52,210 bases of DNA from a virus. Lineage: Duplodnaviria; Heunggongvirae; Uroviricota; Caudoviricetes. The notes beneath the pieces were generated by a model. That model did not search any database. It was not told where the DNA came from and saw only the letters and a program-made list of their open reading frames with translations. The stretch covers positions 1 through 52,210 of the IMG/VR virus record IMGVR_UViG_2541047879_000004, one strand, 5' to 3'. Below are positions 30,461 to 52,210 of the stretch, one piece after another. The position numbers and the translations under genes are program-made. Every line of letters starts with the position of its first letter. Position 1 is the stretch's first letter.

Positions 30461-30496
30461 AGTCAGTGCTGACCATCAATATGAGGTTTTAACAAA

Positions 30497-30844: not shown

Positions 30845-30901
30845 CACGTTATCAGGCCACCATGGTGGCCTGACTGATTTCTGAATGAAAGGAACTGATT
30901 T

Positions 30902-31930: not shown

Positions 31931-31981
31931 TCCGTGAGCGGGGGCGAAATGCCCCCGTGTCTTTTTTCACAGGAGGCTGAG

Positions 31982-32711: not shown

Positions 32712-32726
32712 ACGCAGGGTGAAATT

Positions 32727-33652: not shown

Positions 33653-33659
33653 GGACGAT

Positions 33660-34412
33660 ATGGCAACACCAAATCCCCTTGAGCCGGTAAAAGGTGCCGG
33701 TACCACTCTGTGGGTTTACAACGGCAAGGGTGATGCTTATGCAAACCCGTTGTCAGACGATGACTGGCAGCGACTGGCTAAGGTGAAGGATCTGACGCCG
33801 GGCGAGATGACGGCAGAATCCTACGATGATAACTACCTGGATGATGAAGACGCGGACTGGACCGCGACCGGGCAGGGGCAGAAATCTGCAGGTGATACCA
33901 GTTTTACGCTGGCCTGGAAACCGGGAGAGGAAGGCCAGAAAGGGCTTATAGGCTGGTTTGAAAGCGGCGATGTCCGGGCCTATAAAATCCGTTTTCCGAA
34001 TGGCACGGTGGATGTGTTTCGTGGCTGGGTCAGCAGTATCGGTAAGGCCGTGACGGCGAAAGAAGTGATCACCCGCACGGTGAAAGTCACTAACGTGGGT
34101 AAACCTTCTGTAGCGGAAGAACGCAGCAAAATTACGCCGGTCAGTGCGATTAAGGTGACGCCGACATCCGGTACGGTGGCAAAAGGGAAAACAACCACCC
34201 TGACGGTTTCTTTTGAGCCGGAAAGTGCAACCGACAAGACGTTCAGAGCGGTTTCCGCCGATCCGTCGAAAGCCACCATTAGTGTGAAAGATATGACAAT
34301 TACGGTAAACGGCGTGGCGACAGGTAAGGTGCAGATCCCTGTGGTGAGCGGAAATGGTCAGTTCGCCGCAGTGGCTGAAGTCACCGTTACTGAAGCGGGC
34401 GCTGCAGGGTAA
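33660..34412 (+). CDS. V: Major tail protein V
   Basis: [11 protein letters not shown]...[38 protein letters not shown] like lambda gpV. Confidence 0.95.
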
Positions 34413-34425
34413 ACGGAGGTAATAC

Positions 34426-34857
34426 ATGTTTCTGAAAACAGAACAATTTGAATATAACGGTGTGTCTGTCACGCTTTCCGAATTGTCTGCGCTGCAGCGT
34501 ATCGAGCATCTTGCCCTCCTGAAACGGCGTGCAGAACAGGCAGAATCCTGCGGCAACCTGCAGGTAAGCGTGGAAGATCTCGTCAGAACCGGCGCGTTTC
34601 TGGTGGCGATGTCCCTGTGGCATAACCATCCACAGAAAACGCAGTCACCGTCAATGAATGAGGCCGTGATGAAGATAGAGCAGGAAGTGCTCACCACCTG
34701 GCCTGCCGATGCCATTGCCCGGGCGGAAGACGTGGTGTTGTGCCTGTCCGGGATGATCGAAGCTGTTCGTCCGGATACTGATATTACTGAAGTGGCGAAA
34801 AATAACACGCTGACTGATGATGATTTTTCTGCGGGAAAGTCTTCGACGGCGAGCTGA
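34426..34857 (+). CDS. G: Tail assembly chaperone G
   Basis: MFLKTEQFEYNGVSVTLSELSALQRIEHLALLKRRAEQAES like lambda gpG. Confidence 0.9.
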   Translation: MFLKTEQFEYNGVSVTLSELSALQRIEHLALLKRRAEQAESCGNLQVSVEDLVRTGAFLVAMSLWHNHPQKTQSPSMNEAVMKIEQEVLTTWPADAIARAEDVVLCLSGMIEAVRPDTDITEVAKNNTLTDDDFSAGKSSTAS

Positions 34858-35297
34858 ACTTTGCCCTCAGACTGGCGCGTGAGATGGGGAGACCCGACTG
34901 GCGCGCCATGCTTGCCGGGATGACATCCACCGAATATGCCGACTGGCACCGTTTTTACCGCACGCATTATTTTCAGGATACCCAGCTGGATATGCATTTT
35001 TCCGGGCTGACGTACGCTGTACTCAGCCTGTTTTTTTGCGATCCGGATATGCATCCCTCTGATTTCAGTCTGCTTGTCCCCCGGCATGAGGAAGAGCAGG
35101 TGGAGAGGCCGGATGAGGACAAAATGCTGATGCAGAAAGCGGCAGGACTTGCCGGAGGCGTCCGGTTCGGTGGGGACGGAGGGCGCGATATTTTATCGTC
35201 TGCGGATGTGGCGGATGTCATGGTGGATGATGCCGCATTAATGATGGCTTCAGCGGGGATTCCGGGAGGTGTGAGATATGTCCCAGCCGGTTGGTGA
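34426..35297 (+). CDS. Tail assembly chaperone G-T fusion (via -1 frameshift at 34833-34839)
   Basis: Downstream T-frame ORF lacks independent RBS context and is in -1 frame to G, as in lambda. Confidence 0.75.
34833..34839 (+). promoter_or_regulatory. Programmed -1 ribosomal frameshift slippery heptamer G GGA AAG (G to G-T fusion)
   Basis: GGGAAAG five codons before G stop; -1 frame is open from here into the T ORF (T frame is -1 relative to G). Confidence 0.8.
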
Positions 35298-37851
35298 TCT
35301 TGTTATTGACCTGAGTCTGGATGCTGTCCGTTTCGATGAGCAGATGAGCCGGGTAAGGCGTCATTTTTCAGGTCTGGATACCGACGCCAGAAAAACCGCC
35401 AGTGCTGTTGAACAGGGCCTGAGCCGCCAGGCGCTGGCTGCACAAAAAGCCGGGATTTCCGTCGGGCAGTATAAAGCGGCCATGCGAACCCTGCCCGCAC
35501 AGTTTACGGATATCGCCACGCAGCTTGCAGGTGGTCAGAATCCCTGGCTGATCCTGCTGCAACAGGGCGGTCAGGTGAAGGACTCCTTCGGCGGGATGAT
35601 CCCCATGTTCAGGGGGCTCGCCGGTGCGATCACCCTGCCGATGGTCGGGGTCACCTCGCTGGCGGTGGCGACAGGTGCGCTGGTGTACGCCTGGTACCAG
35701 GGAGATTCCACGCTTTCAGCGTTTAATAAAACCCTGGTTCTTTCCGGTAATCAGTCCGGACTGACTGCCGATCGTATGCTGACTCTCTCAAGAGCCGGGC
35801 AGGCAGCAGGGCTGACGTTTAACCAGGCGAGAGAGTCACTGGCAGCCCTGGTGAATGCCGGTGTGCGTGGTGGTGAACAGTTTGATGCCATCAACCAGAG
35901 TGTCGCGCGTTTTGCGTCTGCATCCGGTGTGGAGGTGGATAAAGTCGCTGAAGCCTTCGGGAAGCTGACCACTGACCCGACGTCGGGACTGATGGCGATG
36001 GCGCGCCAGTTCCGTAACGTGACGGCAGAGCAGATTGCGTATGTTGCACAGCTGCAGCGTTCCGGAGACGAGGCCGGGGCATTGCAGGCGGCGAACGATA
36101 TCGCCACGAAAGGCTTTGATGAGCAGACCCGTCGCCTGAAAGAAAACATGGGAACACTGGAGACCTGGGCGGATAAAACAGGGAAGGCATTCAAATCGAT
36201 GTGGGATGCCATTCTGGATATCGGTCGTCCTGAATCCTCAGCGGATATGCTCGCCAGTGCGCAGAAGGCATTTGATGAGGCGGATAAAAAATGGCAGTGG
36301 TACCAGAGCCGGAGCCAGCGCCGGGGAAAGACCTCCTCTTTTCGTGCGAACCTTCAGGGGGCATGGGATGACCGGGAAAATGCCCGTCTGGGTCTGGCAG
36401 CGGCCACGCTGCAGTCGGATATGGAAAAAGCCGGTGAACTGGCGGCAAGGGACCGGGCTGAGCGTGAGGCGTCACAGCTGAAGTATACCGGAGAGGCGCA
36501 GAAGGCGTATGAGCGCCTGCAGACGCCGCTGGATAAATATACCGCCCGTCAGAAAGAGCTGAATAAGGCCCTGAAAGACGGAAAAATCCTGCAGGCGGAT
36601 TACAACACGCTGATGGCGTCGGCAAAAAAGGATTATGAATCGACGCTGAAAAAGCCGTCAGGTGTGAAGGTGTCTGCCGGTGAGCGCCAGGAAGACCGGG
36701 CGCATGCAGCCATGCTGGCGCTTGAAACCGAGCTCAGGACGCTGGAAAAACACAGCGGTGTGAATGAGAAAATCAGCCAGCAGCGCCGGGATTTATGGGA
36801 AGCGGAAAATCAGTATGTGGTCCTGAAAGAGGCCGCCACGAAACGGCAGTTATCTGAGCAGGAAAAATCCCTGCTGGCCCATGAGAAAGAAACGCTGGAG
36901 TACAAACGCCAGCTGGCTGAGCTGGGCGACAAGATTGAACACCAGAAACGGCTGAATGAGCTGGCACAGCAGGCGGCGCGGTTTGAACAGCAGCAGAGCG
37001 CGAAGCAGGCGGCAATCAGCGCAAAAGCCCGCGGACTCACCGACCGTCAGGCGCAGCGGGAGTCGGAAGAGCAGCGCCTTCGTGAGGTGTACGGTGATAA
37101 TCCGGCTGCGCTGGCGAAGGCCACATCTGCACTGAAGAACACCTGGTCTGCGGAGGAGCAGCTTCGTGGAAGCTGGATGGCCGGGATGAAGTCCGGCTGG
37201 GGCGAGTGGGCGGAAAGTGCGACGGACAGTTTTTCGCAGGTTAAAAACGCGGCCACGCAGACCTTTGACGGTATTGCACAGAATATGGCAGCGATGCTGA
37301 CCGGCAGCGAACAGAACTGGCGTGGTTTCACCCGTTCTGTGCTGTCCATGCTGACAGAGATTTTTCTGAAGCAGGCGATGGTGGGGATAGTCGGGAGTAT
37401 CGGCAGCGCCATTGGCGGGGCTGTTGGTGGCGGCGCATCCGCGTCAGGCGGTACAGCCATTCAGGCTGCGGCGGCGAACTTCCATTTCGCGACCGGGGGA
37501 TTTACGGGGACGGGGGGTAAATATGAACCTGCGGGGATTGTTCATCGCGGGGAGTTTGTCTTCACGAAGGAGGCGACCAGCCGGATTGGTGTCGGCAATC
37601 TGTACCGCCTGATGCGGGGCTATGCGGAAGGTGGTTATGTCGGCGGTGCCGGAAGTCCGGCGCAGATGCGGCGGGCGGAAGGCATTAATTTTAATCAGAA
37701 CAATCACGTGGTGATTCAGAACGACGGCCCCAACGGGCGGGCAGGGCCGCAGCTGATGAAAGCGGTGTATGAGATGGCCCGCAAGGGGGCACAGGATGAA
37801 CTCCGGCTGCAGTTGCGTGATGGCGGTATGTTATCAGGGAGCGGTGGATGA
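35278..37851 (+). CDS. H: Tail tape measure protein H
   Basis: 857 aa, helical/coiled-coil-rich, between G-T and M. Confidence 0.95.
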   Translation: MSQPVGDLVIDLSLDAVRFDEQMSRVRRHFSGLDTDARKTASAVEQGLSRQALAAQKAGISVGQYKAAMRTLPAQFTDIATQLAGGQNPWLILLQQGGQVKDSFGGMIPMFRGLAGAITLPMVGVTSLAVATGALVYAWYQGDSTLSAFNKTLVLSGNQSGLTADRMLTLSRAGQAAGLTFNQARESLAALVNAGVRGGEQFDAINQSVARFASASGVEVDKVAEAFGKLTTDPTSGLMAMARQFRNVTAEQIAYVAQLQRSGDEAGALQAANDIATKGFDEQTRRLKENMGTLETWADKTGKAFKSMWDAILDIGRPESSADMLASAQKAFDEADKKWQWYQSRSQRRGKTSSFRANLQGAWDDRENARLGLAAATLQSDMEKAGELAARDRAEREASQLKYTGEAQKAYERLQTPLDKYTARQKELNKALKDGKILQADYNTLMASAKKDYESTLKKPSGVKVSAGERQEDRAHAAMLALETELRTLEKHSGVNEKISQQRRDLWEAENQYVVLKEAATKRQLSEQEKSLLAHEKETLEYKRQLAELGDKIEHQKRLNELAQQAARFEQQQSAKQAAISAKARGLTDRQAQRESEEQRLREVYGDNPAALAKATSALKNTWSAEEQLRGSWMAGMKSGWGEWAESATDSFSQVKNAATQTFDGIAQNMAAMLTGSEQNWRGFTRSVLSMLTEIFLKQAMVGIVGSIGSAIGGAVGGGASASGGTAIQAAAANFHFATGGFTGTGGKYEPAGIVHRGEFVFTKEATSRIGVGNLYRLMRGYAEGGYVGGAGSPAQMRRAEGINFNQNNHVVIQNDGPNGRAGPQLMKAVYEMARKGAQDELRLQLRDGGMLSGSGG

Positions 37852-38177
37852 AAACCTTTCGCTGGAAAGTGAAGCCGGATATGGAGGTGAACTCGCAGCC
37901 ATCGGTGCGTGAAGTGCGTTTTGGTGACGGGTACTCACAGCGTATGGCGGCAGGGCTGAATGCTGACCTGAAAACATACAGGGTGACGCTTTCCGTGACC
38001 CGGGAGGAGGCCCGGCATCTGGAAGCGTTCCTGGCAGAGCACGGTGGCTGGAAGGCATTTTTGTGGAAGCCACCCTATGCATACCGGCAGATAAAGGTGA
38101 CCTGTGCCGGGTGGTCTGCGCGGGTCGGGATGTTGCGCGTTGAGTTCAGCGCGGAGTTTAAGCAGGTGGTGAACTGA
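37848..38177 (+). CDS. M: Minor tail protein M
   Basis: 109 aa, lambda gpM position and size. Confidence 0.9.
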   Translation: MKTFRWKVKPDMEVNSQPSVREVRFGDGYSQRMAAGLNADLKTYRVTLSVTREEARHLEAFLAEHGGWKAFLWKPPYAYRQIKVTCAGWSARVGMLRVEFSAEFKQVVN

Positions 38178-38880: not shown

Positions 38881-39624
38881 ATGACACAGACAGAATCAGC
38901 GATTCTGGCGCACGCCCGGCGATGTGCGCCAGCGGAGTCGTGCGGCTTCGTGGTAAGCACGCCGGAGGGGGAAAGATATTTCCCCTGCGTGAATATCTCC
39001 GGTGAGCCGGAGGCGTATTTCCGTATGTCGCCGGAAGACTGGCTGCGGGCAGAGATGCAGGGGGAGATTGTGGCACTGGTCCACAGTCATCCCGGTGAGC
39101 TGCCCTGGCTGAGCGAGGCTGACCGGCGGCTGCAGATAAAAAGCGCACTGCCCTGGTGGCTGGTCTGCCGGGGGGAAATTTATAAATTCCGCTGTGTGCC
39201 ACATCTGACAGGACGGCGCTTTGAGCACGGGGTGACGGACTGTTACACGCTGTTCCGGGATGCATACCATCTGGCGGGAATTGATATGCCGGATTTTCAT
39301 CGCGAGGATGACTGGTGGCGCAACGGCCAGAACCTGTACCTGGACAATATGGCGGTCACCGGCTTTTACCGGGTGCCCCTGTCCTCTGCACAGCCGGGCG
39401 ATATCCTGCTGTGCTGCTTCGGCGCATCGGTGGCTAATCATGCCGCCATTTACTGCGGCAACGGTGAACTGCTTCACCATATTCCTGAACAACTGAGTAA
39501 ACGGGAGAGGTATTCCGAAAAATGGCAACGACGAACGCATTCTGTCTGGCGTCACCGCCACTGGCACACATCTGCCTTCACGGGGATTTACAACGATTTG
39601 GCCGCCGCCTCAGCCTGTATGTGA
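38881..39624 (+). CDS. K: Tail assembly protein K (MPN/NlpC-P60-like)
   Basis: HSHP...SxxD JAMM-like motif (VHSHPGELPWLSEAD) and Cys-His region (DCYTLF...H). Confidence 0.9.
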   Translation: MTQTESAILAHARRCAPAESCGFVVSTPEGERYFPCVNISGEPEAYFRMSPEDWLRAEMQGEIVALVHSHPGELPWLSEADRRLQIKSALPWWLVCRGEIYKFRCVPHLTGRRFEHGVTDCYTLFRDAYHLAGIDMPDFHREDDWWRNGQNLYLDNMAVTGFYRVPLSSAQPGDILLCCFGASVANHAAIYCGNGELLHHIPEQLSKRERYSEKWQRRTHSVWRHRHWHTSAFTGIYNDLAAASACM

Positions 39625-40202
39625 ACACGGCAGCGGAAGCCATTCGCGCCCTGTCGATGCAGATGCCGGGCTTTCGCCGTCAGATGAACGAAGGCTGGTA
39701 CCAGATACGTATTGCCGGTGATGACACGGCACCGGAGGCGGTGTATGCCCGTCTTCACGAACAGCTGGGTGAGGGAACGGTCATCCACATTGTGCCGCGA
39801 CTGGCCGGGGCCGGAAAGGGTGGACTGCAGATTGTGCTGGGGGCGGCAGCCATCGTGGGCTCTTTCTTCACGGCCGGAGGCTCGATGGCGTTATGGGGTA
39901 CAGCCCTGAGTGCCGGTGGTTTTTCTGCCACCACGATGCTGTTTTCACTGGGTGCCAGCATGATACTGGGCGGTGTGGCCCAGATGCTGGCCCCGAAGGC
40001 AAAAACACCGGATTACCGCGCAACGGATAACGGCAGACAGAACACGTACTTTTCCTCGCTGGATAACATGATTGCCCAGGGGAACCCGATGCCGGTGCCT
40101 TACGGGGAAATGCTGGTTGGCTCCCGCCGTATATCCCAGGACATCAGCACCCGTGATGAAGGCGGGGGCGGAAAGGTCGTGGTTATCGGGCGGCAGGGGT
40201 AA
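39522..40202 (+). CDS. I: Tail assembly protein I
   Basis: ICLHGDLQRFGRR...IHIVPR...QNTYFSSLDNM like lambda gpI; overlaps K 3' end. Confidence 0.9.
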   Translation: MATTNAFCLASPPLAHICLHGDLQRFGRRLSLYVNTAAEAIRALSMQMPGFRRQMNEGWYQIRIAGDDTAPEAVYARLHEQLGEGTVIHIVPRLAGAGKGGLQIVLGAAAIVGSFFTAGGSMALWGTALSAGGFSATTMLFSLGASMILGGVAQMLAPKAKTPDYRATDNGRQNTYFSSLDNMIAQGNPMPVPYGEMLVGSRRISQDISTRDEGGGGKVVVIGRQG

Positions 40203-40545
40203 AAAGAATAAAAAAATCCCGCAGTGATCGCGGACAGGAACTGCGGGAGAGTTACGAAGATTAAGTGTAAGGAATTATTCTTATATCACGACAAAAAAAT
40301 TAACGCAGAGAAATTATACGCGCCACGGTCAGTTTGTGAAAATGTGAAGATATTCAGAATTTTTATGCCATTACCGGTTTTAACCAACAGGATTATCGGT
40401 GGGCATGAAAGAAAACCCCGGTATCTGCTGATACCGGGGGTTCTCTTTAGCATGGCAGAAATGTGTTTCATGCTTTTCGGGCGAAGGATATCCGACTTCT
40501 GTACGGAATGGCAAGTGGCGGTTAATTTATTCAGGGGAAGGCTGT

Positions 40546-43500
40546 ATGGGAAAAGGTGGCGGTAAGGCACACACGCCTCGTGAGGCGAAGGATAATCTCA
40601 AATCCACGCAGATGATGAGTGTGATTGATGCGATTGGTGAGGGACCGATAGAAGGTCCGGTGAAGGGACTGCAGAGTATTCTGGTGAACAAAACCCCACT
40701 GACGGACACGGACGGCAATCCCGTGATACACGGTGTGACGGCGGTCTGGCGCGCCGGGGAGCAGGAGCAGACACCACCGGAAGGCTTTGAGTCCTCCGGA
40801 GCTGAAACCGGACTGGGCGTGGAAGTGACGAAGGCAAAACCGGTGACGCGCACCATTACGTCCGCGAACATTGACCGCCTGCGGGTTACCTTCGGGGTGC
40901 AGTCACTGGTGCAGACCACGTCAAAGGGCGACCGTAATCCTTCCTCTGTCCGGATTCTGATTCAGTTACAGCGTAATGGTCGCTGGGTGACGGAAAAGGA
41001 CGTCACCATTAACGGCAAGACCACCTCACAGTTCCTGGCCTCGGTGATTCTGGATAATCTGCCGCCCCGGCCCTTTAACATCCGGATGGTCAGGGAGACG
41101 GCGGACAGCACCACGGACCAGCTGCAGAATAAGACGCTGTGGTCGTCATACACCGAAATCATCGATGTGAAACAGTGCTACCCGAACACGGCCATTGTGG
41201 GGCTGCAGGTGGATGCGGAGCAGTTCGGCGGCCAGCAGATGACGGTGAACTACCATATCCGCGGTCGCATCATCCAGGTGCCGTCAAACTATGACCCGGA
41301 AAAACGCACGTACAGTGGTATCTGGGACGGCAGTCTGAAACCGGCATACAGCAACAACCCGGCCTGGTGCCTGTGGGACATGCTGACTCACCCGCGCTAC
41401 GGCATGGGAAAACGTCTGGGGGCGGCGGATGTGGACAAGTGGGCGCTGTATGCCATCGGGCAGTACTGCGATCAGACGGTCCCGGATGGTTTCGGGGGGA
41501 CCGAGCCGCGGATGACCTTTAATGCGTACCTGGCACAACAGCGTAAGGCGTGGGACGTTCTCAGTGATTTCTGCTCTGCGATGCGCTGTATGCCGGTATG
41601 GAACGGTCAGACGCTGACGTTCGTTCAGGACCGCCCGTCGGATGTGGTGTGGCCGTACACCAACAGCGATGTGGTGGTGGATGATAACGGCGTGGGATTC
41701 CGCTACAGCTTCAGTGCCCTGAAGGACCGGCACACGGCGATGGAGGTGAATTACACCGACCCGCAGAACGGCTGGCAGACCTCCACGGAACTGGTGGAAG
41801 ACCCGGAAGCCATACTGCGCTACGGACGCAACCTGCTGAAGATGGATGCGTTCGGCTGTACCAGCCGCGGTCAGGCCCACCGTGCCGGACTGTGGGTGAT
41901 AAAGACCGAACTGCTGGAAACGCAGACGGTGGATTTCACGCTCGGGTCTCAGGGGCTGCGGCACACACCCGGTGACATCATTGAAATCTGTGATAACGAC
42001 TATGCCGGGACCCTGACCGGCGGACGTGTCCTGTCCATTGATGCTGCCACCCGCACCCTGACGCTGGACCGTGAAGTGACACTTCCGGAGACCGGTGCCG
42101 CCACGGTGAACCTGATTAACGGCAGCGGTAAGCCAGTGAGTGTGGACATCACCGAACACCCCGCGCCGGACCGGATACAGGTCAGTACCCTGCCTGATGG
42201 TGTGGAGACATACGGGGTGTGGGGACTCTCCCTGCCGTCACTGCGCCGTCGCCTGTTCCGCTGTGTCTCCGTCCGGGAAAACACGGACGGCACCTTTGCC
42301 ATCACGGCGGTGCAGCACGTACCGGAAAAAGAAGCCATCGTGGATAACGGTGCCCGCTTTGAGCCGCAGTCAGGTTCCCTGAACAGCGTCATCCCACCGG
42401 CAGTGCAGCACCTGACGGTGGAGGTGAGCGCAGCTGACGGCCAGTATCTGGCGCAGGCGAAATGGGACACGCCGCGGGTGGTGAAGGGTGTGCGCTTCAG
42501 TCTGCGCCTGACCAGTGGTAAGGGAACGGATGCCAGACTGGTGACCACCGCTATCACCGCAGACACGGAGCACCGTTTCAGCGGCCTGCCGCTCGGGGAA
42601 TACACCCTGACGGTGCGGGCGATAAACAGCTATGGCCAGCAGGGTGAACCTGCCACCACCACCTTCCGGATTGCCGCACCGGCAGCACCGTCGCGGATTG
42701 AGCTGACGCCGGGCTATTTTCAGATAACCGCCACGCCGCATCTTGCCGTTTATGACCCGACGGTACAGTTTGAGTTCTGGTTCTCGGAAAAGCGGATTGC
42801 GGATATCAGGCAGGTTGAAACCGCAGCCCGCTATCTTGGCTCGGCGCTGTACTGGATAGCTGCCAGTATCAATATCAAACCGGGCCATGATTATTATTTT
42901 TATATCCGCAGTGTGAATACTGTTGGCAAATCGGCATTCGTGGAGGCTGTCGGTCGGGCGAGCGATGATGCGGAAGGTTACCTGGATTTTTTCAAAGGAG
43001 AAATCGGGAAAACACATCTGGCCCAGGAGCTGTGGACGCAGATTGATAACGGTCAGCTTGCGCCGGACCTGGCTGAAATCAGGACGTCCATTACGAATGT
43101 CAGCAATGAAATCACGCAGACCGTCAATAAAAAACTGGAAAATCAGAGTGCGGCAATCCAGCAGATACAGAAAGTTCAGGTTGATACAAATAATAACCTG
43201 AACAGCATGTGGGCCGTGAAACTGCAGCAGATGCAGGACGGACGCCTTTATATTGCGGGTATCGGTGCCGGTATTGAGAATACGCCAGCAGGAATGCAGA
43301 GTCAGGTGCTGCTGGCGGCAGACAGGATTGCGATGATTAATCCTGCGAATGGCAACACAAAGCCGATGTTTGTTGGTCAGGGCGATCAGATATTTATGAA
43401 TGAAGTGTTCCTGAAATATCTGACGGCTCCCACCATTACCAGCGGCGGTAATCCTCCGGCATTTTCCCTGACACCGGACGGGCGGCTGACGGCGAAAAAT

Positions 43501-43638
43501 GCCGATATCAGCGGTAACGTGAATGCGAACTCCGGGACGCTCAACAACGTCACGATTAACGAGAACTGTCGGTTTACGAGAACTCGGCACAAGCGGGGAG
43601 AAAATACCGTTACTCAGTACAGCGAATACCTGGACTAA
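40546..43638 (+). CDS. J: Tail tip / host specificity protein J body (C-terminal receptor-binding domain apparently detached)
   Basis: 1030-aa lambda gpJ-like ORF; last ~22 residues non-J and stop lies inside a gix-like sequence. Confidence 0.85.
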
Positions 43639-43644
43639 TCGACA
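43619..43644. other. Degenerate gix-like recombination site (left boundary of invertible tail-fibre segment)
   Basis: ACAGCGAATACC TG GACTAATCGACA; outer half matches the strong site at 46638-46663 in inverted orientation, inner half diverged. Confidence 0.4.
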
Positions 43645-44515
43645 AACATTCAGCGGTGGCCTTTCTGGTGAACTATCCGGCAATGCTTCTACAGCTGCAA
43701 AATTAAAAACTGCCAGGAAAATAAGCAATGTGGCTTTTGATGGTTCCTCCGATATCACATTAAAAGCAAGTCATGTTGGTGCGTTTGCCTTAGGGAAAAC
43801 AGGAAGCACCGTTGCGAATGATAAAGCAGTTGGATGGAACTGGAGTAGCGGAGCCTATAACGCAACTATTAGTGGTGCATCAACGTTAATTATTCATTTT
43901 TATATGGGAGAAGGAAGTTGTCCTGCAGCTCAGTTTCGGATTAATTATAAAAATGGCGGTATTTTTTATCGTTCAGCCCGTGATGGTTATGGTTTTGAAG
44001 CCGACTGGTCCGAATTTTACACCACCACCAGAAAGCCTTCAGCAGGAGATGTTGGTGCACTGCCGTTATCTGGTGGTCAACTGAATGGTGCACTGGGTAT
44101 CGGAACATCCAGTGCTCTTGGCGGTAATTCGATTGTATTGGGTGATAATGACACGGGCTTTAAACAAAATGGCGATGGTAATCTGGATGTTTATGCTAAT
44201 AACGTCCATGTTATGCGCTTTGTCTCCGGAAGCATTCAAAGTAATAAAACCATAAATATTACAGGGCGTGTTACCCCCTCGGATTACGGTAACTTTGATT
44301 CCCGTTATGTGAAAGATGTTCGACTTGGTTCACAGCAATATTATGGAGTGAACAACTGGCAAACATGGAATTTCCAGTGCCCTTCAGGTCATGTATTGTC
44401 TGGTATTAATGTTCAGGATACAGGGTCTAACTCTGCCGATAATATAGCGGGCGTTTATTACAGACCCGTTCAAAAGTATATAAATGGCACCTGGTATAAT
44501 GTAGCGAGCGTTTAA
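43645..44515 (+). CDS. Silent alternative tail-fibre C-terminal cassette (S'v-like), no start codon of its own
   Basis: Homologous to C-terminal part of stf (LGGNSI(V/T)LGDNDTG(F/I)KQ(N/G)GDG, ...[11 protein letters not shown]); frame differs from J. Confidence 0.6.
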
Positions 44516-44516
44516 T

Positions 44517-45050
44517 ATGATGCACTTAAAGAACATAAAAGCGGGTAATGCTAAAACACTGGAACAGTATGAGTTAACAAAGAAACACGGAGTTATCTGG
44601 CTTTACTCTGAGGACGGAAAAAACTGGTATGAGGAAGTGAAAAACTTTCAGCCAGACACCATAAAGATTGTTTACGATGAAAATAATATTATTGTTGCCA
44701 TAACCAAAGATGCCTCCACACTTAACCCTGAAGGTTATAGCGTCGTTGAGATTCCTGATATTACCGCCAACCGGCGTGCTGACGACTCAGGTAAATGGAT
44801 GTTTAAAGATGGCGCAGTCATTAAACGTGTATATACCGAAGAAGAGTTGCGCCTACAGACGGAAAACCAGAAAAAAATATTATTACAGCAGGTCAGAGAA
44901 AAAACGCAGTTCTGGCAAACACAGCTTACTTTGGGGATTATCACTGATTCAGACAGACAGCAACTGATGAACTGGATGCGATACGTGCAACAGGTTGAGA
45001 CAACTGATACCTCGGTTCTTCCTGTAACATTCCCGGAACCACCAGAATAA
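44517..45050 (+). CDS. Tail fibre assembly protein (Tfa', alternative cassette)
   Basis: 177 aa paralog of 45081..45608 (MxHLKNIxAG...GVIWLY(S/T)EDGKNWY). Confidence 0.8.
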
Positions 45051-45054
45051 GAAA

Positions 45055-45078
45055 AGGCCCGTACGGGCCTTAATTTGT
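45055..45078. terminator. Bidirectional hairpin between convergent tfa genes
   Basis: AGGCCCGtacGGGCCT flanked by A/T runs. Confidence 0.55.
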
Positions 45079-45080
45079 TG

Positions 45081-45608
45081 TTATTCTGGTTTCTGTGGCC
45101 ATTCAGGCTTTGCAGTATCCACACGGCTGACCATAACGCTGTAGCGTTCCCATGATTCCAGTCGTGTGCGTTCCTCATCAGTTGCCATATTAAGTCTGAC
45201 AGCACGTTCCAGCGGTTGAATCACAGACTCCGCTTCGGAAAGCAAAGCGGCTTTTTGTAACTCTGCCTGCTGTTGCAGTTCCTGTTTTGTATATTCCCGC
45301 TTTACTACTTTACCATCCAGAAACTTCCAGTTTCCCGAGATATCGGCGCGACGGTTGGCTGTTATATTCGGTAACTCAACAACACTTAACCCGTCAGGGT
45401 TAAGTGTTGATACGTCTTTCTCAATACAACGAATAATCCCCTTCTGGTCATAAGCTATTTTTAAAGTATCATCCTGAAAGTTTTTTAATTCGTCATACCA
45501 GTTTTTACCGTCTTCTGTATATAGCCAGATAACGCCAGCTTTTTTCGTAAGCTGATACTGCTCAATGGTTTTGGGCTTTCCGGCGGTAATATTTTTCAGA
45601 TGTTGCAT
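45081..45608 (-). CDS. tfa: Tail fibre assembly protein Tfa
   Basis: 175 aa immediately downstream of stf on minus strand. Confidence 0.8.
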
Positions 45609-45623
45609 ATATTCTCCTGATGG

Positions 45624-48530
45624 CTATGCCTGTTCAACGTTATACCAGTTACCAGAAATGTATTTTTGTAGTGGTCGTGACACCATCCAGTCATCTCCAT
45701 CAACCTCACCAATAATTTGCAATCCTGTTGTCACATGACCATTACCTGGTTCGCAAAGTCCTCCGCGATATAATGCGTCAGAACGTCTGCCTCCCAGACG
45801 CACATTTCTGATAAAAGAACTATTCAGGTAATCATTTAAGTTTGAACCCCAGCACCCACCAAATATATTTCCATCGGTGTTATAACGGACGCCACCCGCA
45901 ATAAGAGCACCCGGTGAAATAAAGGATTTATCGTTCGGGTTAAACTGCCATAAAGCATCATTACCGCCATCGCCACGCATATGAATACATGGAACCGGAA
46001 ATCCATACTGTTCTGTCAGTAAATACCCAAAGCTGACCGCGCCGGGATAGCCCTGTCCATTGCGAATGGACAAGCCCTTAACTATCGGCACGTAATGACC
46101 ACCAGGAGTGGGATTCCAGGCAAACTGCGTCTGAACAAAAGGCGCGGTGGCATTATTCAACTGGTCTGCAAATGCGCCACTTCCATCAGGAATTATTCCC
46201 TGATGAATATATGCAACCCGCTTATAAAAATCAGCAGATGCGGGTTGAAGCCCAAATGCCAGTTGTCCATTTGAATAGAATAAAAGGACACCGTCGCCGC
46301 CCTGTTTAATACCAGTGTCGTTATCTCCGAGAGTAATGGAATTACCGCCCAGTGCGTTATCTGTACCAAGCGCCAGCCCACCATCAATTTTGGCCCCGTG
46401 GCTGACAGATATAGCACCTGTTCTCAGATTTATAGCGAATGGCCTTAATGGGCCGATATCACCGTTTTCGCCTTGTCCTTCAGCCGTCGGAATGAAATGA
46501 AGAAAATCTTCTGAACGACGGAAAATAAGACCGAAGGCATCATTGAAAATTCGCAGCGCATTCACCGTGCCAATTTTCAGTTCTCCGGTCATTTTATCGC
46601 CGGAACGCTGAACGGCGTTACCAGCCTTGTTTACCGTTTCCTGTAAACCGAGGTATTCGATAACGGCGGCAACGGTCGATTTCGCAAGAATATCCCGCCC
46701 AACTTTTGTCAGGGTTGCCAGACTGGCAACATCATTCCCCGTAAAATACGGAAACCTGTCTGCCGCAGTAGCAAGCCCGGCCAGCGCCGTCAGGGTGGCA
46801 TCTTTCGGTTGCTTACCCGCAAGCGCGCTAGTCATGGTGGTCGCAAAATTCGGGTCGTTGCCCAACGCCGCAGCCAGCTCGTTCAGCGTATTCAGTGCGT
46901 CAGGCGACGAGTCCACGAGGGCAGCGATCGCAGCCATAACATAAGCCGTGCTTGCGATTTGGGTATTATTCGTTCCCTGTCGCGCAGTTGGTGTTGTTGG
47001 CGTTCCGGTCAGTGCAGGACTATTTAAGGGCGCTTTCTTGTTCGTTTCACCCATTACCGCCTTAACCGCTTTTGGCGTTGCCGCCAGTGACTCGGAAGTG
47101 CTGTTGGTCGCACTGCTGAGCTGTACTATCCCCTTTTTCGTCGTGCTCGCATCCTCAAGCGCCACGGCGGATGCAATATCCTCTGCCCGTTTTGCCGCTG
47201 TCTCAGCGCGCGTTGCCGCGGATTCCGCCGTACTTTTGCTCTGAGCTGCCGCCGTCGCACTGCCAGCTGCCTCTGTCGCCTTCGTGGATGCCGTCGTGGC
47301 GCTGCCCTTTGCTGCTGACGCCTGTCTGGTCGCCTCATCTTTTGAAGCAGACGCAGATGATGCCGATGACGCCGCTGAACTGGCTGACGATGCGGCTGCC
47401 GCCTTAGAGGAAGCAGCATTGTCTGCTGAAGTCTTTGCATTTGTTTCAGAGGTTTTTGCTGCAGAAGCAGACCTCGCTGCTGCAGTGGCTTGCTCAGTGG
47501 CTTTGCCAGCCTTCGTTGTGGCTGTTGAAGCGGATGATGCGGCGCTTTCTGCCGATTTTCCGGCGGCGGTGGCACTGGCTGAGGCCTGCCCGGCACTTGT
47601 TGACGCGGCACTGGCAGATAATGCAGCCGCTGTTTTTGAACCTGCCGCAGCTGAGGCGCTCTGTCCCGCTGCTGTTTCAGAAGACTTAGCGTTCGTCTCG
47701 GACGTTTTTGCCGCCTTCGCGGAATTTCCTGCCGCCGTTGCCGAGGAAGCTGCACTACTGGCACTTGATGATGCATTCGTTTCTGAAGATTTCGCTGCCT
47801 CTTTTGAGGCCGCCGCACCCCGTGCCGAGGTGGCAGCTTCTGACGCCTTCGTGGTCGCTGTGGATGCAGAAGTGGCTGCTGATTGTTGTGACGCTGCCGC
47901 ATTCGTTTCTGACGTTTTCGCGGCACTGGCGCTGGTAGCTGCCGCGCTTTTTGATGACTCTGCAGCAGCAGCACTTTTTGATGCCTCAGAGGCTTTTGCT
48001 GATGCCGTTCCTGCGCTGGAAAAAGCCTCCTGAGCCGACGTCGCGGCCTGTCCGGCTGACGTGCTGGCTGCGCGTGCTGAGCCTGCAGCATCAGTCGCAT
48101 GGGTTGCCGCCTCACGGGCTGATGTGCTGGCATCGCCGGCTGACTTCTTCGCGGCTGCCGTGTTCTGTGCCACTGCGGACGCGTTACGCGCCACCTCTTC
48201 CACCATCAGTTCAAAACGGCGCAGTGCCTCCGGACGGGCATCATCCTCCGTCATGGCACCGAGAAAATCATTCAGCGTACCTGGTCTGGAACCTTCATAG
48301 ACGGTAATGGTCCCGGCATGTGAAGGCGGAAAACCTTCAACCAGCAGGGTGACGCTGTACTGACCATGCTCAACATCCATGCTGTAACGTCCGGCTTCAT
48401 CCGGATTTTCAGAGGCCACCGTGTTCACCACCACCGTGCTGCTGGTTCGTCTGGCCTTCAGCACAATGGTGCAGTTCTGTACTGGTTTTCCTGTGCCATC
48501 TTTAAGCACGCCAGAAATTTTTACTGTCAT
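45624..48530 (-). CDS. stf: Side tail fibre protein Stf
   Basis: 968 aa; N-terminus MTVKISGVLKDGTGKPVQNCTI like lambda Stf (recalled); long Ala/Ser/Thr-rich shaft repeats. Confidence 0.85.
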   Translation of the reverse strand: MTVKISGVLKDGTGKPVQNCTIVLKARRTSSTVVVNTVASENPDEAGRYSMDVEHGQYSVTLLVEGFPPSHAGTITVYEGSRPGTLNDFLGAMTEDDARPEALRRFELMVEEVARNASAVAQNTAAAKKSAGDASTSAREAATHATDAAGSARAASTSAGQAATSAQEAFSSAGTASAKASEASKSAAAAESSKSAAATSASAAKTSETNAAASQQSAATSASTATTKASEAATSARGAAASKEAAKSSETNASSSASSAASSATAAGNSAKAAKTSETNAKSSETAAGQSASAAAGSKTAAALSASAASTSAGQASASATAAGKSAESAASSASTATTKAGKATEQATAAARSASAAKTSETNAKTSADNAASSKAAAASSASSAASSASSASASKDEATRQASAAKGSATTASTKATEAAGSATAAAQSKSTAESAATRAETAAKRAEDIASAVALEDASTTKKGIVQLSSATNSTSESLAATPKAVKAVMGETNKKAPLNSPALTGTPTTPTARQGTNNTQIASTAYVMAAIAALVDSSPDALNTLNELAAALGNDPNFATTMTSALAGKQPKDATLTALAGLATAADRFPYFTGNDVASLATLTKVGRDILAKSTVAAVIEYLGLQETVNKAGNAVQRSGDKMTGELKIGTVNALRIFNDAFGLIFRRSEDFLHFIPTAEGQGENGDIGPLRPFAINLRTGAISVSHGAKIDGGLALGTDNALGGNSITLGDNDTGIKQGGDGVLLFYSNGQLAFGLQPASADFYKRVAYIHQGIIPDGSGAFADQLNNATAPFVQTQFAWNPTPGGHYVPIVKGLSIRNGQGYPGAVSFGYLLTEQYGFPVPCIHMRGDGGNDALWQFNPNDKSFISPGALIAGGVRYNTDGNIFGGCWGSNLNDYLNSSFIRNVRLGGRRSDALYRGGLCEPGNGHVTTGLQIIGEVDGDDWMVSRPLQKYISGNWYNVEQA
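46638..46663. other. gix/cix/pix-like DNA invertase crossover site inside stf (constant/variable junction)
   Basis: TTCCTGTAAACCGAGGTATTCGATAA, about 23 of 26 match to Mu gixL-type sequence as recalled; encodes AAVIEYLGLQE in stf frame. Confidence 0.65.
47120..48185. repeat. Ala/Ser/Thr-rich low-complexity repeat region of Stf shaft
   Basis: Protein segment of repeated (A/S/T)xSAxxA units; GC-rich DNA generating mirror ORFs in other frames. Confidence 0.7.
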
Positions 48531-48681
48531 ACTTTTCCACCAATAAAAAAAGCCCGCAGCAGTGACGCCACGGGGTTCAGGACAGTGTAACTTTACGTTT
48601 CCTCAAACGCAGTTCACCCCATAAGGTGGATGAACCTGCGTATCATAACAATATTTACAGAAGATAAATCGGCGTCTGTTG

Positions 48682-49281
48682 TCAGAAACGGTATCCGATA
48701 CCAACAATAAATGCATCCGTTCGCCAGTCGCCACTACCGGAACCTTCATAAGCAAGGTCAATGGTCACGGATTCGGTCGGGTTAAACTGCACGCCAGCCC
48801 CCCACGCCAGAGACGTGTTGCTGTGGCGACCGTCATCACTTCCGGTCAGCACATCGTGCGTTTTCCCCTTGTTGTCAGTTACGCGGAGATAATCCCCGGA
48901 GAAAGTCGACACACGGCTGTAAGCCACACCCGCCATCGCATACGCGCTGAACCATTCATTCACGCGTACAGACGGCCCCGCCATCACGCTGAACCAGCGG
49001 TTACGCACGGAATCTTCATGCCAGCGGGTATCGCTGTAGCGCGTTTTTTGCTCATCCTCAGCATTGGCATAACTGAAGGACGTAATCAGCCCCAGCGCGT
49101 CCGTAAACTCATAACGGTATTTCACGTTAATCCCGTTCAGATCATCACTACCGGGAACGTTCGTCGAGGCATGGAGATACCCCGCGCTCAGCGTGGACTG
49201 ATGTTCTGCTGCACTCGCTGGCGTAGCAGCGGCGACCTGCCAGACTACTGCGGACAAAATAACAGCACATAATTTACGCAT
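48682..49281 (-). CDS. lom: Outer membrane beta-barrel protein Lom (Ail/PagC/OmpX family)
   Basis: Signal peptide MRKLCAVILSAVVWQVAAATPASA; C-terminal ...GIGYRF beta-barrel terminus. Confidence 0.85.
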   Translation of the reverse strand: MRKLCAVILSAVVWQVAAATPASAAEHQSTLSAGYLHASTNVPGSDDLNGINVKYRYEFTDALGLITSFSYANAEDEQKTRYSDTRWHEDSVRNRWFSVMAGPSVRVNEWFSAYAMAGVAYSRVSTFSGDYLRVTDNKGKTHDVLTGSDDGRHSNTSLAWGAGVQFNPTESVTIDLAYEGSGSGDWRTDAFIVGIGYRF

Positions 49282-49299
49282 AATTACCTCTCGCTTTTC

Positions 49300-49330
49300 T
49301 GCAATAAAAAAGGCGCCATTTCTGGCGCCC
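49300..49330 (-). terminator. Rho-independent terminator (minus strand) between J-fragment ORF and lom
   Basis: GGCGCCagaaatGGCGCC followed by T-run on minus strand. Confidence 0.6.
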
Positions 49331-49348
49331 GTATCTGGGTTATAAAAT

Positions 49349-49831
49349 TCAGCTAATCGTGATGCCTGCAGTGGCTTTCTTCATCACCACAACCAGCAAA
49401 TCGCTGATACTTGCTGTGGGATACCAGTTATTTACCAGCCATGCTGACACCGAAAACTCCAGTGTCATGTGACCGTGACCGGCAGGCATATCAATAACAC
49501 CACTGTAAATCAGCGTATTATCCAGCGCGGTACGGTTATAAATTTCAGCACCGTTTTTCCGCACTATCAGACGGCATGAGGAGTAAATATCAGTATGCTC
49601 TTTCTCATGTTTAGCGCCGCTGAATGCCACCGCCGGAATAACAATCTGCCGGTCAAACGGCTGATCGTCATAAACCCTGACGGTAATGGTTCCTGATGGC
49701 CACCGCTCCGGTGCACGGGAGTCCCGGGGGAAAGCTTTGCCCACTGTTTTAACGAGATCGCCTTCAATCTGGTTCGCGGACAATTTTCCCAGAACCCGAG
49801 GTTTTAGATAATGGCGGTTTCTGGCCTGCAT
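49349..49831 (-). pseudogene. Inverted, detached fragment resembling C-terminal receptor-binding domain of J
   Basis: [21 protein letters not shown]...[15 protein letters not shown]...[10 protein letters not shown] resembles recalled lambda J C-terminus; lies upstream of lom on minus strand as in lambda J-lom order. Confidence 0.55.
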
Positions 49832-49865
49832 GGCATGATTTGTGCTTTTGGACGGGAGATTCAGC

Positions 49866-50105
49866 GTGCTGATTGGCTATGTAAGGGTATCAACAAATGA
49901 CCAGAATACAGATCTGCAACGAAACGCTCTTGTTTGTGCAGGATATGAACAAATATTTGAAGATAAATTAAGCGGAACAAGGACAGGCCGACCTGGATTA
50001 AAACGTGCTTTAAAGCGCCTTCAAAAAGGTGACGCACTGGTTGTCTGAAAACTGGACTGACTGGTTCACTGTATGCGGCATCTTGTCGTGCTGGTGGTGG
50101 AAGCC
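49866..50105 (+). pseudogene. pin: DNA invertase (Pin/Gin/Hin serine recombinase) N-terminal remnant with nonsense mutations, 3' part deleted
   Basis: [62 protein letters not shown] then TGA; downstream frame degenerate with second stop. Confidence 0.75.
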
Positions 50106-50107
50106 TA

Positions 50108-50240
50108 GAAAAAGTATCGGGTGTTACTGAACCGTGTTGATACATCAACTGCACCTGATATTGAGTGGCCTACGAACCCTGTCAGGGAGTAATCATTGGG
50201 ATTATGCCGCAGCACGTCTTAAGCAAGAACGTGCTGCGGT
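50108..50240. repeat. Direct repeat copy A: tfa 3' end (..[26 protein letters not shown]) plus hairpin
   Basis: About 130 bp nearly identical to 51166-51298. Confidence 0.8.
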
Positions 50241-50246
50241 TGGATG

Positions 50247-50915
50247 CTATTTTTTCCCTGAAGCGGAAAACATTACTACAGTACCTTGAACCTTGGTTTT
50301 AACATTCTCGAAATGCTCTGAGAGTATATGTGTTAAGCCTTCTTCGGAATCTTTTGTGTTTGAAAAGATGCCTTTCTGATTGTAAATGCGCATCAGTTTT
50401 TGACCGAAGCTATTGTGCACAACTCCATCGCCAAGAATTGTGGCTCCGTATAGAGTTCCATCGTCAGTTAAGGCCTGCGCCGCATTGCGTATTACACAGC
50501 TTTTTGTAGATATATTTCCAGGCAGGCAGTGAAGAAGGTAAAACATGGAAATGGAATCAAATTGACCATGTAACGCCGCGGGATAAGGTTCAAAAACATC
50601 ATGGCTAATTTTATGTTTAATTTTTGATTCCCCAGCCCTTGTAGATGCCGCGTTCAGGCTAGCTTCGTTCAAATCCATTAAAGATATCAGACTACTCTCA
50701 GGTACGTGAGTAAGGTAAAACCCAGTTCCAACACCAATATCCAGATGGTTGTTACCTACATGTTCCAGAAAGTGTGGAAGAAGGTGTTCCTTTGTAGGAC
50801 ATCCCCATGCAAGCCGATTTGATACTCCCAAAACCCACCAGTCATAAAGCTTTAGGGTAAGTGGTGTGTAAATTTTAGCCCCATCATCTGTGTTTTTTTT
50901 CATTGATTTCACCAT
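50247..50915 (-). CDS. Class I SAM-dependent methyltransferase (non-DNA type), cargo gene
   Basis: Motif I LDIGVGTG, acidic post-I LMDLN, motif II-like FDSISMFYLLHCLP; AT-rich. Confidence 0.6.
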   Translation of the reverse strand: MVKSMKKNTDDGAKIYTPLTLKLYDWWVLGVSNRLAWGCPTKEHLLPHFLEHVGNNHLDIGVGTGFYLTHVPESSLISLMDLNEASLNAASTRAGESKIKHKISHDVFEPYPAALHGQFDSISMFYLLHCLPGNISTKSCVIRNAAQALTDDGTLYGATILGDGVVHNSFGQKLMRIYNQKGIFSNTKDSEEGLTHILSEHFENVKTKVQGTVVMFSASGKK

Positions 50916-50971
50916 GTTATAGTTTTATTTGTGAATTAAATCAATTATGGCGATGAATTACAAGGGGTTAA

Positions 50972-51241
50972 ATGCTGCCGCAGCATAGCGATATTGAAAT
51001 AGCCTGGTATGCTTCGATACAGCAGGAGCCGAATGGCTGGAAGACCGTCACCACACAGTTCTACATCCAGGAATTCAGTGAGTATATTGCGCCACTGCAG
51101 GATGCTGTAGATCTGGAAATCGCAACGGAGGAAGAAAGATCGTTGCTGGAGGCATGGAATAAATATCGGGTATTGTTGAATCGTGTTGATACATCAACTG
51201 CACCTGATATTGAGTGGCCTGCAAATCCTGTCAGGGAGTAA
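50972..51241 (+). pseudogene. Tail fibre assembly protein C-terminal fragment
   Basis: ...[37 protein letters not shown]; only C-terminal part present. Confidence 0.6.
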
Positions 51242-51298
51242 TCATTGGGATTATGCCGCAGACACGTCGTATGCAGGAACGTGCTGCGGTTAGTTTGT
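51166..51298. repeat. Direct repeat copy B of tfa 3' end plus hairpin
   Basis: Near-identical to 50108-50240. Confidence 0.8.
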
Positions 51299-51355
51299 GA
51301 GCTTTCGATAGTGGTTGTTATTTTTGCCCTTATTTGTTCCGGAGGCCATGGTTCA

Positions 51356-51526
51356 ATGGTCCGTCTGCCCCCTGTGGTGATGTCAGCAAAATCAGCCACT
51401 GCGCGAACCACAATAGCCCGGGAAGATGCTGAAGATCACCAGGTAAAGCTGTCAGCGCAGAAACTGGAAGAACTGCTCGCATCAATGGTTAAGGATGAGG
51501 TTGATCGCAATGATGGGATTTATTGA
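51356..51526 (+). CDS. Small hypothetical protein (56 aa)
   Basis: ggagg upstream; weak. Confidence 0.3.
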   Translation: MVRLPPVVMSAKSATARTTIAREDAEDHQVKLSAQKLEELLASMVKDEVDRNDGIY

Positions 51527-51619
51527 CGTCAGCGAGAGCAGAAGGAAGAACTGAATAACCTGAATGATTTACGCTCAATCAGAGCGATGGCGATTAGCGG
51601 CAATCACGCTCGATAAAAT

Positions 51620-51646
51620 TAACCCCGGTGATCATCCGGGGTTTTG
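51620..51646. terminator. Bidirectional rho-independent terminator between convergent genes
   Basis: CCCCGGtgatcatCCGGGG then TTTT. Confidence 0.7.
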
Positions 51647-51652
51647 CATTCA

Positions 51653-52210
51653 TTAAAACCGCATCAACCTTTCCACCAATTGTTCTTTACGGGCAACGAT
51701 CCACCCATGTTGCTCCAGATAAAATTTAAACCGTTCCAGCGTGCATACCATCGCATCGGCGGGGACTTTTTCTGTGAACTCGACCTGACCGTGTTTATCG
51801 AAGTGGATCAGTAATGCGCATCCATTATTTGGGGCGGGGGAGTTTTGTGCTGCAGGAGGACGTTTGTGGAGTTCTTCTTCCATTGCGTTAAATTTTTCAA
51901 TGTAAGCTTCTTTTAGTCTGGCTGCTTTTTTGCCAGTAAATCCCATTACGAGGAACATGAAGCCGTCTTTTGTGATCAGGTAGCATCGTGATTCACGTTC
52001 TGCGCCGTTGCCAATTTCGACAGTCTGAACATCGGCCGAAAAGTTGGCTGATGTAAATTCGGGAGAGCAGTCGAGTGTGTCAATCTTAGCTAAAACGTGT
52101 TTATGTTGTTTATCGAAGTAGTCGGCAACAGCTTGAGAGGTGGTAACCAGGCGACCATCTTTGAAAAAGACTTTTGGTGACTCGTTAGAAAAAGTTATAG
52201 CTGTATTCAT
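51653..52210 (-). CDS. Rha-family phage regulatory protein
   Basis: N-terminal ...GRLVTTSQAVADYFDKQHKHVLAKIDTL... and ...YLITKDGFMFLVMGFTGKKAARLKEAYIEKFNAMEEEL pattern of Rha family (recalled); start codon at window edge. Confidence 0.65.
   Translation of the reverse strand: MNTAITFSNESPKVFFKDGRLVTTSQAVADYFDKQHKHVLAKIDTLDCSPEFTSANFSADVQTVEIGNGAERESRCYLITKDGFMFLVMGFTGKKAARLKEAYIEKFNAMEEELHKRPPAAQNSPAPNNGCALLIHFDKHGQVEFTEKVPADAMVCTLERFKFYLEQHGWIVARKEQLVERLMRF

Follow-up and report, generated by a model that had tools for sequence, protein, structure and literature searches.

The 52,210-nucleotide window analysed here, IMG/VR record IMGVR_UViG_2541047879_000004 (Caudoviricetes, positions 1 to 52,210), begins with an integrase gene beside ompW and covers the greater part of a lambdoid prophage. 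It very probably holds a tail-fibre cassette of the Din family of DNA invertase switches, built around the side fibre gene stf, on which a second, 6,227-bp inversion has been superimposed through a quasi-site in the tail gene J. The cassette itself is ordinary: the 3.1-kb invertible segment of prophage Phi4 of Escherichia coli EC958 is the same element, and has already been published. The novelty lies in the off-target inversion into J, which adds a natural instance to a phenomenon already known.

The right-hand end of the cassette is marked by a 26-bp sequence inside stf (site B, TTCCTGTAAACCGAGGTATTCGATAA), which occurs nowhere else in the window at up to three mismatches and is expected 0 times by chance, no shuffled sequence having given a match. 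It agrees with bixL, from the PinB system of Shigella boydii, at all 26 positions and with gixL/R of phage Mu at 24 of 26, and it has the imperfect 12-2-12 dyad of the Din-family (Gin/Cin/Pin/Hin/PinB) switches. The target sites of these invertases are tabulated in Table 3 of PMC3241671; the identities given here are pairwise only, the consensus printed in that source (24 characters, without a register on 26-bp sites) having been left unused. Site B is also Phi4_5prime of EC958 (Forde et al. 2014, Table 3; PMC4134206). Read on the minus strand it codes for ...IEYLGLQE..., i.e., residues ~623-631 of the 968 amino acids encoded by the full stf open reading frame (ORF; 45624-48530), and this is where the two versions of the fibre part. 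A sequence-only reading of this DNA had proposed a strong gix-type site at 46638-46663 and had placed it at the junction of the constant and variable parts of stf; both proposals were borne out, the sequence at this boundary having matched the bix and gix sites.

The interior of the cassette also has the Sv-U/U'-S'v mirror layout described in that reading. Two sets, each consisting of a variable fibre part and its cognate assembly gene, face each other, with Sv and tfa on the minus strand and a startless S'v and tfa' on the plus strand. Identity between the two assembly proteins is 56%. Homology was also found, locally, between Sv and S'v (E 4e-13): 60% identity over a core of 50 residues, with a second, weaker match towards the C-terminus.

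The true partner half-site of site B is GGTTTACGAGAA at 43571-43582, with the central TC just before it at 43569-43570. In the window it forms the right half of a hybrid, site A, whose inner half matches the real half-sites at 12 of 12 positions and whose outer half, which is J sequence, matches at 4 of 12. The right half of site A is also the right half of Phi4_3prime (Table 3 of PMC4134206). When stf, down to 46650, is joined to the sequence from 43571 onward, the frame stays open over 941 codons with no internal stop, and a 600-nt query across this predicted stf::S'v junction finds a 100% match in ~226 complete E. coli genomes; one of these is JJ1886, in which the product is annotated as a tail fibre. 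The sequence-only reading had located the second site at 43619-43644, with only its outer half kept and a 1-nt indel that would leave S'v out of frame. None of these points could be upheld. The proposed sequence matches the stf site at 13 of 26 positions and is centred on TG; the 9-mer CGAATACCT that the two share belongs to a class of 10 such matches in the window against 7.2 expected; and a fusion made at 43619-43644 yields 28 stop codons. The partner is site A, which keeps the segment-proximal half and the central TC; stf joined at this TC has S'v in frame.

The left site of the cassette looks half-missing because a second, larger inversion used a quasi-site in J. Indeed, J is split in the window. 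Its N-terminal 1,008 codons run up to site A, and the ORF then continues through 22 out-of-frame S'v codons to a TAA at 43638, the S'v frame being offset by one base relative to that of J. A Pfam scan of this ORF, up to 43638, found no Ig_GpJ_C domain. The complete domain is encoded instead by 149 codons that are detached and inverted at the far end of the segment and are 100% identical to inverted EC958 sequence. They overlap a third site, site C, which stands just upstream of an invertase gene remnant; site C matches bixR at 22 of 26 positions, and its right half at 12 of 12. Neither site C (49786-49811) nor the invertase remnant (49866-50094) nor the splitting of J had been noticed in the sequence-only reading.

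Undoing the inversion of 43571-49797 in silico gives an intact J of 1,158 amino acids and the gene order of EC958, which is J, lom, stf, tfa, tfa' (reversed), S'v (reversed), and the pin pseudogene. The restored J is a single ORF made of 40546-43570 and the reverse complement of 49346-49797, and 312 nt across its join are 100% identical, contiguous, and inside annotated gpJ in >1,000 genomes. On the invertase side, the reverse complement of 43571-43870 was placed in front of 49798-50097, and all 600 nt of this restored join occur at 100% identity in ~300 genomes, essentially of ST131. The join recreates the site TTATCTAAAACCTCGGTTTACGAGAA, which is Phi4_3prime (PMC4134206); only in this restored state is an intact partner of site B recovered.

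Alignment with EC958 places the breakpoints to the base. The window is collinear with EC958 over 39006-43572, inverted over 43569-48906 and 48902-49799, and collinear again, at 99.96% identity, over 49793-52210. Adjacent blocks have 4 bp (TCGG) in common at the left breakpoint and 7 bp at the right one, which means that no base was gained or lost in the exchange. The left breakpoint falls inside TCGG, a stretch that includes the central TC of Phi4_3prime, and both parental sites are TC-centred. The parental invertase-proximal site is TTATCTAAAACC-TC-GGTTTACGAGAA and the parental J quasi-site is TAACGAGAACTG-TC-GGGTTCTGGGAA, whose halves match real half-sites at 4 of 12 and 8 of 12 positions; the better half also matches the mix half-site TTCCCCCAAACC (tabulated in PMC3241671) at 9 of 12, counted by eye. 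Exchange at the central TC predicts exactly the two hybrids observed, TAACGAGAACTG-TC-GGTTTACGAGAA at site A and, as the reverse complement, TTATCTAAAACC-TC-GGGTTCTGGGAA at site C.

The break between the two inverted alignment blocks corresponds to an insertion of ISEc12 (IS21 family) that splits lom in EC958 (L001 5081-8266); lom is intact in the window. The 5-bp overlap of the blocks at window 48902-48906 is the target duplication of this insertion.

Table 1. Positions of the cassette, the split J gene and associated features in the window.
Feature	Position	Strand	Basis or description
J, N-terminal 1,008 codons	40546..43570	+	Pfam FNIII-A_GpJ, Phage-tail_3, Ig_J, Ig_J_second, Phage_Tail_Tip
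Site A, hybrid crossover site	43557..43582	+	TAACGAGAACTG-TC-GGTTTACGAGAA; left half J sequence, right half invertase-proximal site
S'v, alternative startless variable C-terminal fibre part, 314 codons	43571..44515	+	Pfam gp37_C
Second site of the sequence-only reading; not a site	43619..43644	.	13/26 match, central TG, 9-mer at chance level
tfa', assembly protein cognate to S'v	44517..45050	+	Pfam Caudo_TAP, E 1.4e-31
Two-way terminator-like hairpin AAGGCCCGTACGGGCCTT between convergent tfa' and tfa	45054..45071	.	Consensus scan only
tfa, assembly protein cognate to Sv	45081..45608	-	Pfam Caudo_TAP, E 9e-35
Sv, variable C-terminal part currently joined to stf	45624..46649	-	ORF list, fusion and homology analyses
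Site B, intact crossover site in stf	46638..46663	+	TTCCTGTAAACC-GA-GGTATTCGATAA; window-unique, bixL/gix identity
Constant N-terminal part of stf	46650..48530	-	Pfam phage_tail_N over residues 1-134
lom, intact, carried within the large inversion	48682..49281	-	Pfam Ail_Lom, E 9e-125
J, C-terminal 149 codons (receptor-binding domain), detached and inverted	49349..49797	-	Pfam Ig_GpJ_C 1-135 of 135
Site C, hybrid crossover site	49786..49811	+	TTCCCAGAACCC-GA-GGTTTTAGATAA; left half from J, right half the invertase-proximal outer half
pin-type invertase gene remnant	49866..50094	+	Pfam Resolvase N-terminal domain, positions 2-69 of 145 only

Three invertible prophage tail-fibre segments have been described in EC958, a strain of E. 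coli ST131 (Forde et al. 2014; PMC4134206). The sites published for Phi4, ccgccgTTATCGAATACCTC GGTTTACAGGAA and ccgccaTTATCTAAAACCTC GGTTTACGAGAA, are identical to site B and to the reconstructed parental invertase-proximal site, respectively. The Phi4 segment measures 3,106 bp, and both of its orientations were present in the PacBio reads of one EC958 culture (PMC4134206); in the window, the outer edges of the corresponding sites enclose 3,107 bp. The truncated invertase gene is shared as well, as is the right-hand flank (a tfa fragment, an S-adenosylmethionine (SAM) methyltransferase gene, Rha and ash), with 99-100% DNA identity over 43569-52210. The 6.2-kb inversion through a site in J distinguishes the window from EC958.

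The flipping of this cassette is also evident among sequenced genomes. The isomer opposite to stf::S'v is found in ~302 complete E. coli genomes, again with 100% identity at the junction, and each orientation gives an in-frame fibre, of 968 amino acids as stf::Sv and of 941 as stf::S'v. The occurrence of both isomers at full identity in hundreds of genomes indicates that the cassette flips and that S'v is in frame. In the sequence-only reading the cassette looked frozen or decaying, which is correct for the invertase gene in cis, now a pseudogene, but not for the cassette, both isomers of which are common in genomes and were seen in a single EC958 culture. Opposite orientations of the 3.1-kb segment also occur between E. 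coli 4/1-1 and 4/4 on the one hand and 2/0 and 4/0 on the other (CP023844, CP023826, CP023853, CP023849), which have neighbouring accessions and human hosts; should these isolates be related, the segment would seem to flip within a short time.

The enzyme of this locus is defective. The pin-type remnant, the domain assignment of which is based on Pfam and on alignment with the Phi1 gene of EC958, has 60 sense codons and three in-frame stops and is then fused, from ~50095, to a 3' fragment of tfa. Its 5' 180 nt, like the remnant taken together with its upstream region, are ~96% identical to the 5' end of the intact Phi1 invertase gene, which encodes 199 amino acids. The same pseudogene is present in EC958, within the block that is 99.96% identical over 49793-52210, and has the same defect as EC958_1582, the Phi4 invertase, which was reported to be truncated and without its helix-turn-helix domain (PMC4134206). 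A functional serine invertase with a catalytic domain and a C-terminal helix-turn-helix is absent beside the cassette, and no other serine recombinase was found in the window. Since the gene in cis is a 60-codon pseudogene, the enzyme must presumably be supplied from elsewhere. For Phi4, action in trans has been proposed, probably by the invertase of the P2-like prophage Phi1, the sites of which are nearly identical (PMC4134206). From its sequence, the locus thus appears to be a non-autonomous member of the family that depends on an enzyme supplied in trans. Because the pseudogene also occurs in uninverted genomes, it predates the large inversion, which in turn would have needed an outside enzyme.

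The Fis enhancer of the Hin system contains two Fis sites spaced by 47 bp and is located ~100 bp away from one of the hix sites. The stretch equivalent to this enhancer (49866-50045) is kept in the remnant at ~96% identity to the intact Phi1 gene, and its retention may explain why the cassette still flips. The fusion partner of the shortened pin is the left copy of two 118-nt direct repeats (50095-50212 and 51144-51261, 89% identical), both of which are 3' ends of tfa. They bracket the gene for a SAM-dependent methyltransferase (50247-50915, minus strand), which looks like a moron inserted by recombination between such tfa fragments.

The following mechanism is proposed. A serine invertase, which would come from another prophage in the same cell, cuts the central TC/GA of two inverted 26-bp sites, one in stf and the other beside the invertase gene; turning the intervening segment would fuse the constant part of stf in frame either to Sv, with tfa, or to S'v, with tfa'. 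In the isolate from which the window derives, the invertase-proximal site would have been paired instead with the weak quasi-site in J, giving a conservative, reciprocal inversion of 43571-49797. A single such inversion, starting from the Sv-on isomer that is the reference state of EC958, would account for the whole arrangement.

In its present state, the inverted segment is flanked by sites A and C, with the intact site B in between. The genes lom, stf, and tfa are oriented opposite to the late operon, and S'v and tfa' lie downstream of the N-terminal part of J. A promoter scan of 43000-50300 gave fewer sigma-70-like matches than shuffled sequence, and none on the minus strand able to drive the inverted lom-stf block. 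The inversion has also created a 160-amino-acid ORF (49349-49831, minus strand), in which 11 codons from the pin-upstream region, starting from an ATG at 49831, precede the complete receptor-binding domain of J. The prophage would presumably be unable to make adsorbing particles unless sites A and C recombine back. Each of these hybrids is a better site than the original quasi-site, so that reversal could take place if an invertase is present. Given such an enzyme, inversions between A and B and between A and C should both remain chemically possible; B and C stand in direct orientation, an arrangement normally excluded by the invertasome.

The 6,227-bp inversion is a private event of one isolate. 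No match spanning the junctions at A and C was obtained by BLAST in 5,426 complete E. coli genomes, and exact-pattern scans of species-representative genomes, IMG/VR, and JGI metagenomes for the 36-nt string at junction A gave none. The truncated J protein of 1,030 amino acids is on record in a single assembly, NCBI GCA_000460075.1; its scaffold KE701494.1 is identical to the window over their overlap (30546-52210), which makes this the source assembly. It is the absence of the junctions from these collections, together with the restriction of the truncated J to one assembly, that marks the event as private.

Several observations weigh against the proposed quasi-site inversion. The window has no intact recombinase, and an enzyme elsewhere in the source genome is presumed; the retention of the Fis enhancer in the pin remnant is presumed from position only. 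The source is a short-read, scaffold-level assembly, and the 4-bp overlap at the left breakpoint is equally expected from microhomology-mediated illegitimate recombination. Moreover, the J quasi-site is a weak one. Equal or better scores are reached by 223 TC-centred 26-mers of the window, and the sequence alone therefore leaves its choice unexplained.

These points bear most directly on two rival explanations. An inversion that is real but independent of any invertase, arising by illegitimate recombination at the microhomology TCGG, would fit the fact that the quasi-site is no better than ~200 other positions and that an invertase in the genome is so far presumed. Yet one of its ends coincides with the central dinucleotide of a site that recombines in EC958, and a breakpoint placed at random in 52 kb would do so with a chance of the order of 1e-4. 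The exchange was also reciprocal and conservative, the partners share the central TC in inverted orientation, and a presumed enhancer lies ~100 bp from the invertase-proximal site (site P), all of which makes this origin improbable. An artefact of draft assembly appears a little less probable again. The prophages of one cell carry repeated copies of J, stf, and tfa, the NCBI assembly is at scaffold level, and the arrangement is found nowhere else. However, misassembly is unlikely because the parental sequences share just 4-7 bp at the breakpoints, far below the k-mer of an assembler, so that reads must span both junctions, and because both reciprocal junctions are present. The window and its flanks are free of Ns, and one breakpoint coincides exactly with the cleavage dinucleotide of a proven crossover site.

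Two further readings have very little probability. A simple Mu G-like cassette running from 43619-43644 to 46638-46663, with a decayed left site, a 1-nt indel, and an S'v that cannot be fused, would agree with the 9-mer common to both positions and with the death of the invertase in cis. It is contradicted by the poor, TG-centred match, by a number of 9-mer matches close to expectation, and by the 28 stops, as opposed to the 941-codon frame from 43571 and its junction in ~226 genomes; the published Phi4 sites also fit the corrected positions. Just as negligible a chance is given to a programmed three-site switch that reversibly uncouples the receptor-binding domain of J as an on/off lock on the prophage. 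The hybrids A and C, each better than the original quasi-site, make reversal chemically plausible, and an identical quasi-site is present in >1,000 genomes. Nevertheless, the searches of 5,426 complete genomes and of the other collections gave no second instance, J and S'v are joined out of frame, and the conservation of the J coding sequence suffices to explain the quasi-site. A looser variant, slightly less far-fetched but still very unlikely, would have A, B, and C act as a reversible system under an invertase in trans, alternating between a particle-competent and a locked prophage while the exchange of stf tips is kept; the 160-amino-acid ORF might then give a free J receptor-binding domain in the lysogen, for instance a receptor blocker like StfE2 of the PinQ/e14 system.

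The use of quasi-sites by DNA invertases, in which the central dinucleotide is shared and the flanking similarity is limited, supports the preferred reading, i.e., a Din-family cassette with an off-target inversion into J. For Cin, such use was reportedly described by Iida and Hiestand-Nauer (1987, Mol Gen Genet 208:464). At cixQ, a genuine site reportedly recombined with a poor secondary site having the same central dinucleotide and produced hybrid sites, in events that were experimentally selected. Unlike those events, the inversion in the window arose naturally, has been fixed in an isolate, breaks up a tail gene that is essential, and presumably relied on an enzyme acting in trans. A full-text literature search on quasi-sites returned only Forde et al. 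2014, which cites Iida and Hiestand-Nauer.

As in the G segment of Mu (Gin/gix), the C segment of P1 (Cin/cix), and the P segment of e14 (Pin/pix), the cassette has inverted 12-2-12 sites, one of them at the boundary between the constant and variable parts of the fibre gene, mirror-image sets of a variable part and an assembly gene, and a serine invertase gene just outside. It differs from these systems in belonging to a lambdoid prophage with an stf-type side fibre and in having a dead invertase in cis. Its sites have GA at the centre, like gix and bix; in cix, pix, and hix the corresponding dinucleotide is AA. The closest sites are those of the PinB/bix B segment of S. boydii (GenBank D00660, tabulated in PMC3241671), in which bixL equals site B and bixR matches the reconstructed invertase-proximal site at 24 of 26 positions, both being GA-centred. 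The comparison with S. boydii covers the sites only; that system has an intact pinB, whereas the invertase of the window is dead. A parallel for action in trans is provided by PinQ of Qin, which inverts the P segment of e14 (Kirigo et al. 2025; PMC12529663). In both cases, the invertase of one prophage would act on the fibre cassette of another, defective prophage; however, PinQ uses regular sites and generates a chimeric, host-protective protein. The PinQ report keeps open a small chance that rearranged cassettes function in the lysogen.

The remainder of the prophage is related to Phi4 at its ends. The window shares with it the integrase end and the end from J to Rha, and the region 23500-38100, which carries the head and proximal tail genes, has no megablast match to Phi4. 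These genes are of the lambda type, namely capsid E (Phage_cap_E), FI (Packaging_FI), Z (Minor_tail_Z), U (Phage_tail_U), V, G, T, and H, whereas the head and tail module of Phi4 is HK97-like. The prophage is thus a mosaic that shares only its ends with Phi4. Within the cassette, the hairpin between the convergent assembly genes could terminate transcription in both directions. Inside the 3' end of tfa', at 45007-45017, 11 nt (ATACCTCGGTT) are identical to the core of the stf site, including its central TC; with ~0.4 such matches expected per window, this could be another quasi-site or just chance. The Ala/Ser-rich repeats of the stf shaft (47100-48200) give rise to many short direct-repeat families and to long spurious ORFs, e.g., 47126-48133 on the minus strand and 47284-48033 on the plus strand.

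Collectively, the window offers a clean natural case of the off-target use of a quasi-site by a DNA invertase, in which both parents and both products can be recovered to the base. It also calls for caution in annotation, as the startless S'v, the S'v-derived tail of the N-terminal J ORF, and the C-terminal J ORF have all been called as genes in the source record. With an identical quasi-site in J in >1,000 sequenced E. coli, the off-target reaction should be measurable and could serve the study or engineering of recombinases of the Gin/Hin type. For the prophages themselves, the case indicates that such switches can inactivate the very prophage that carries them, here by removing the receptor-binding domain of J, possibly through the enzyme of another prophage.

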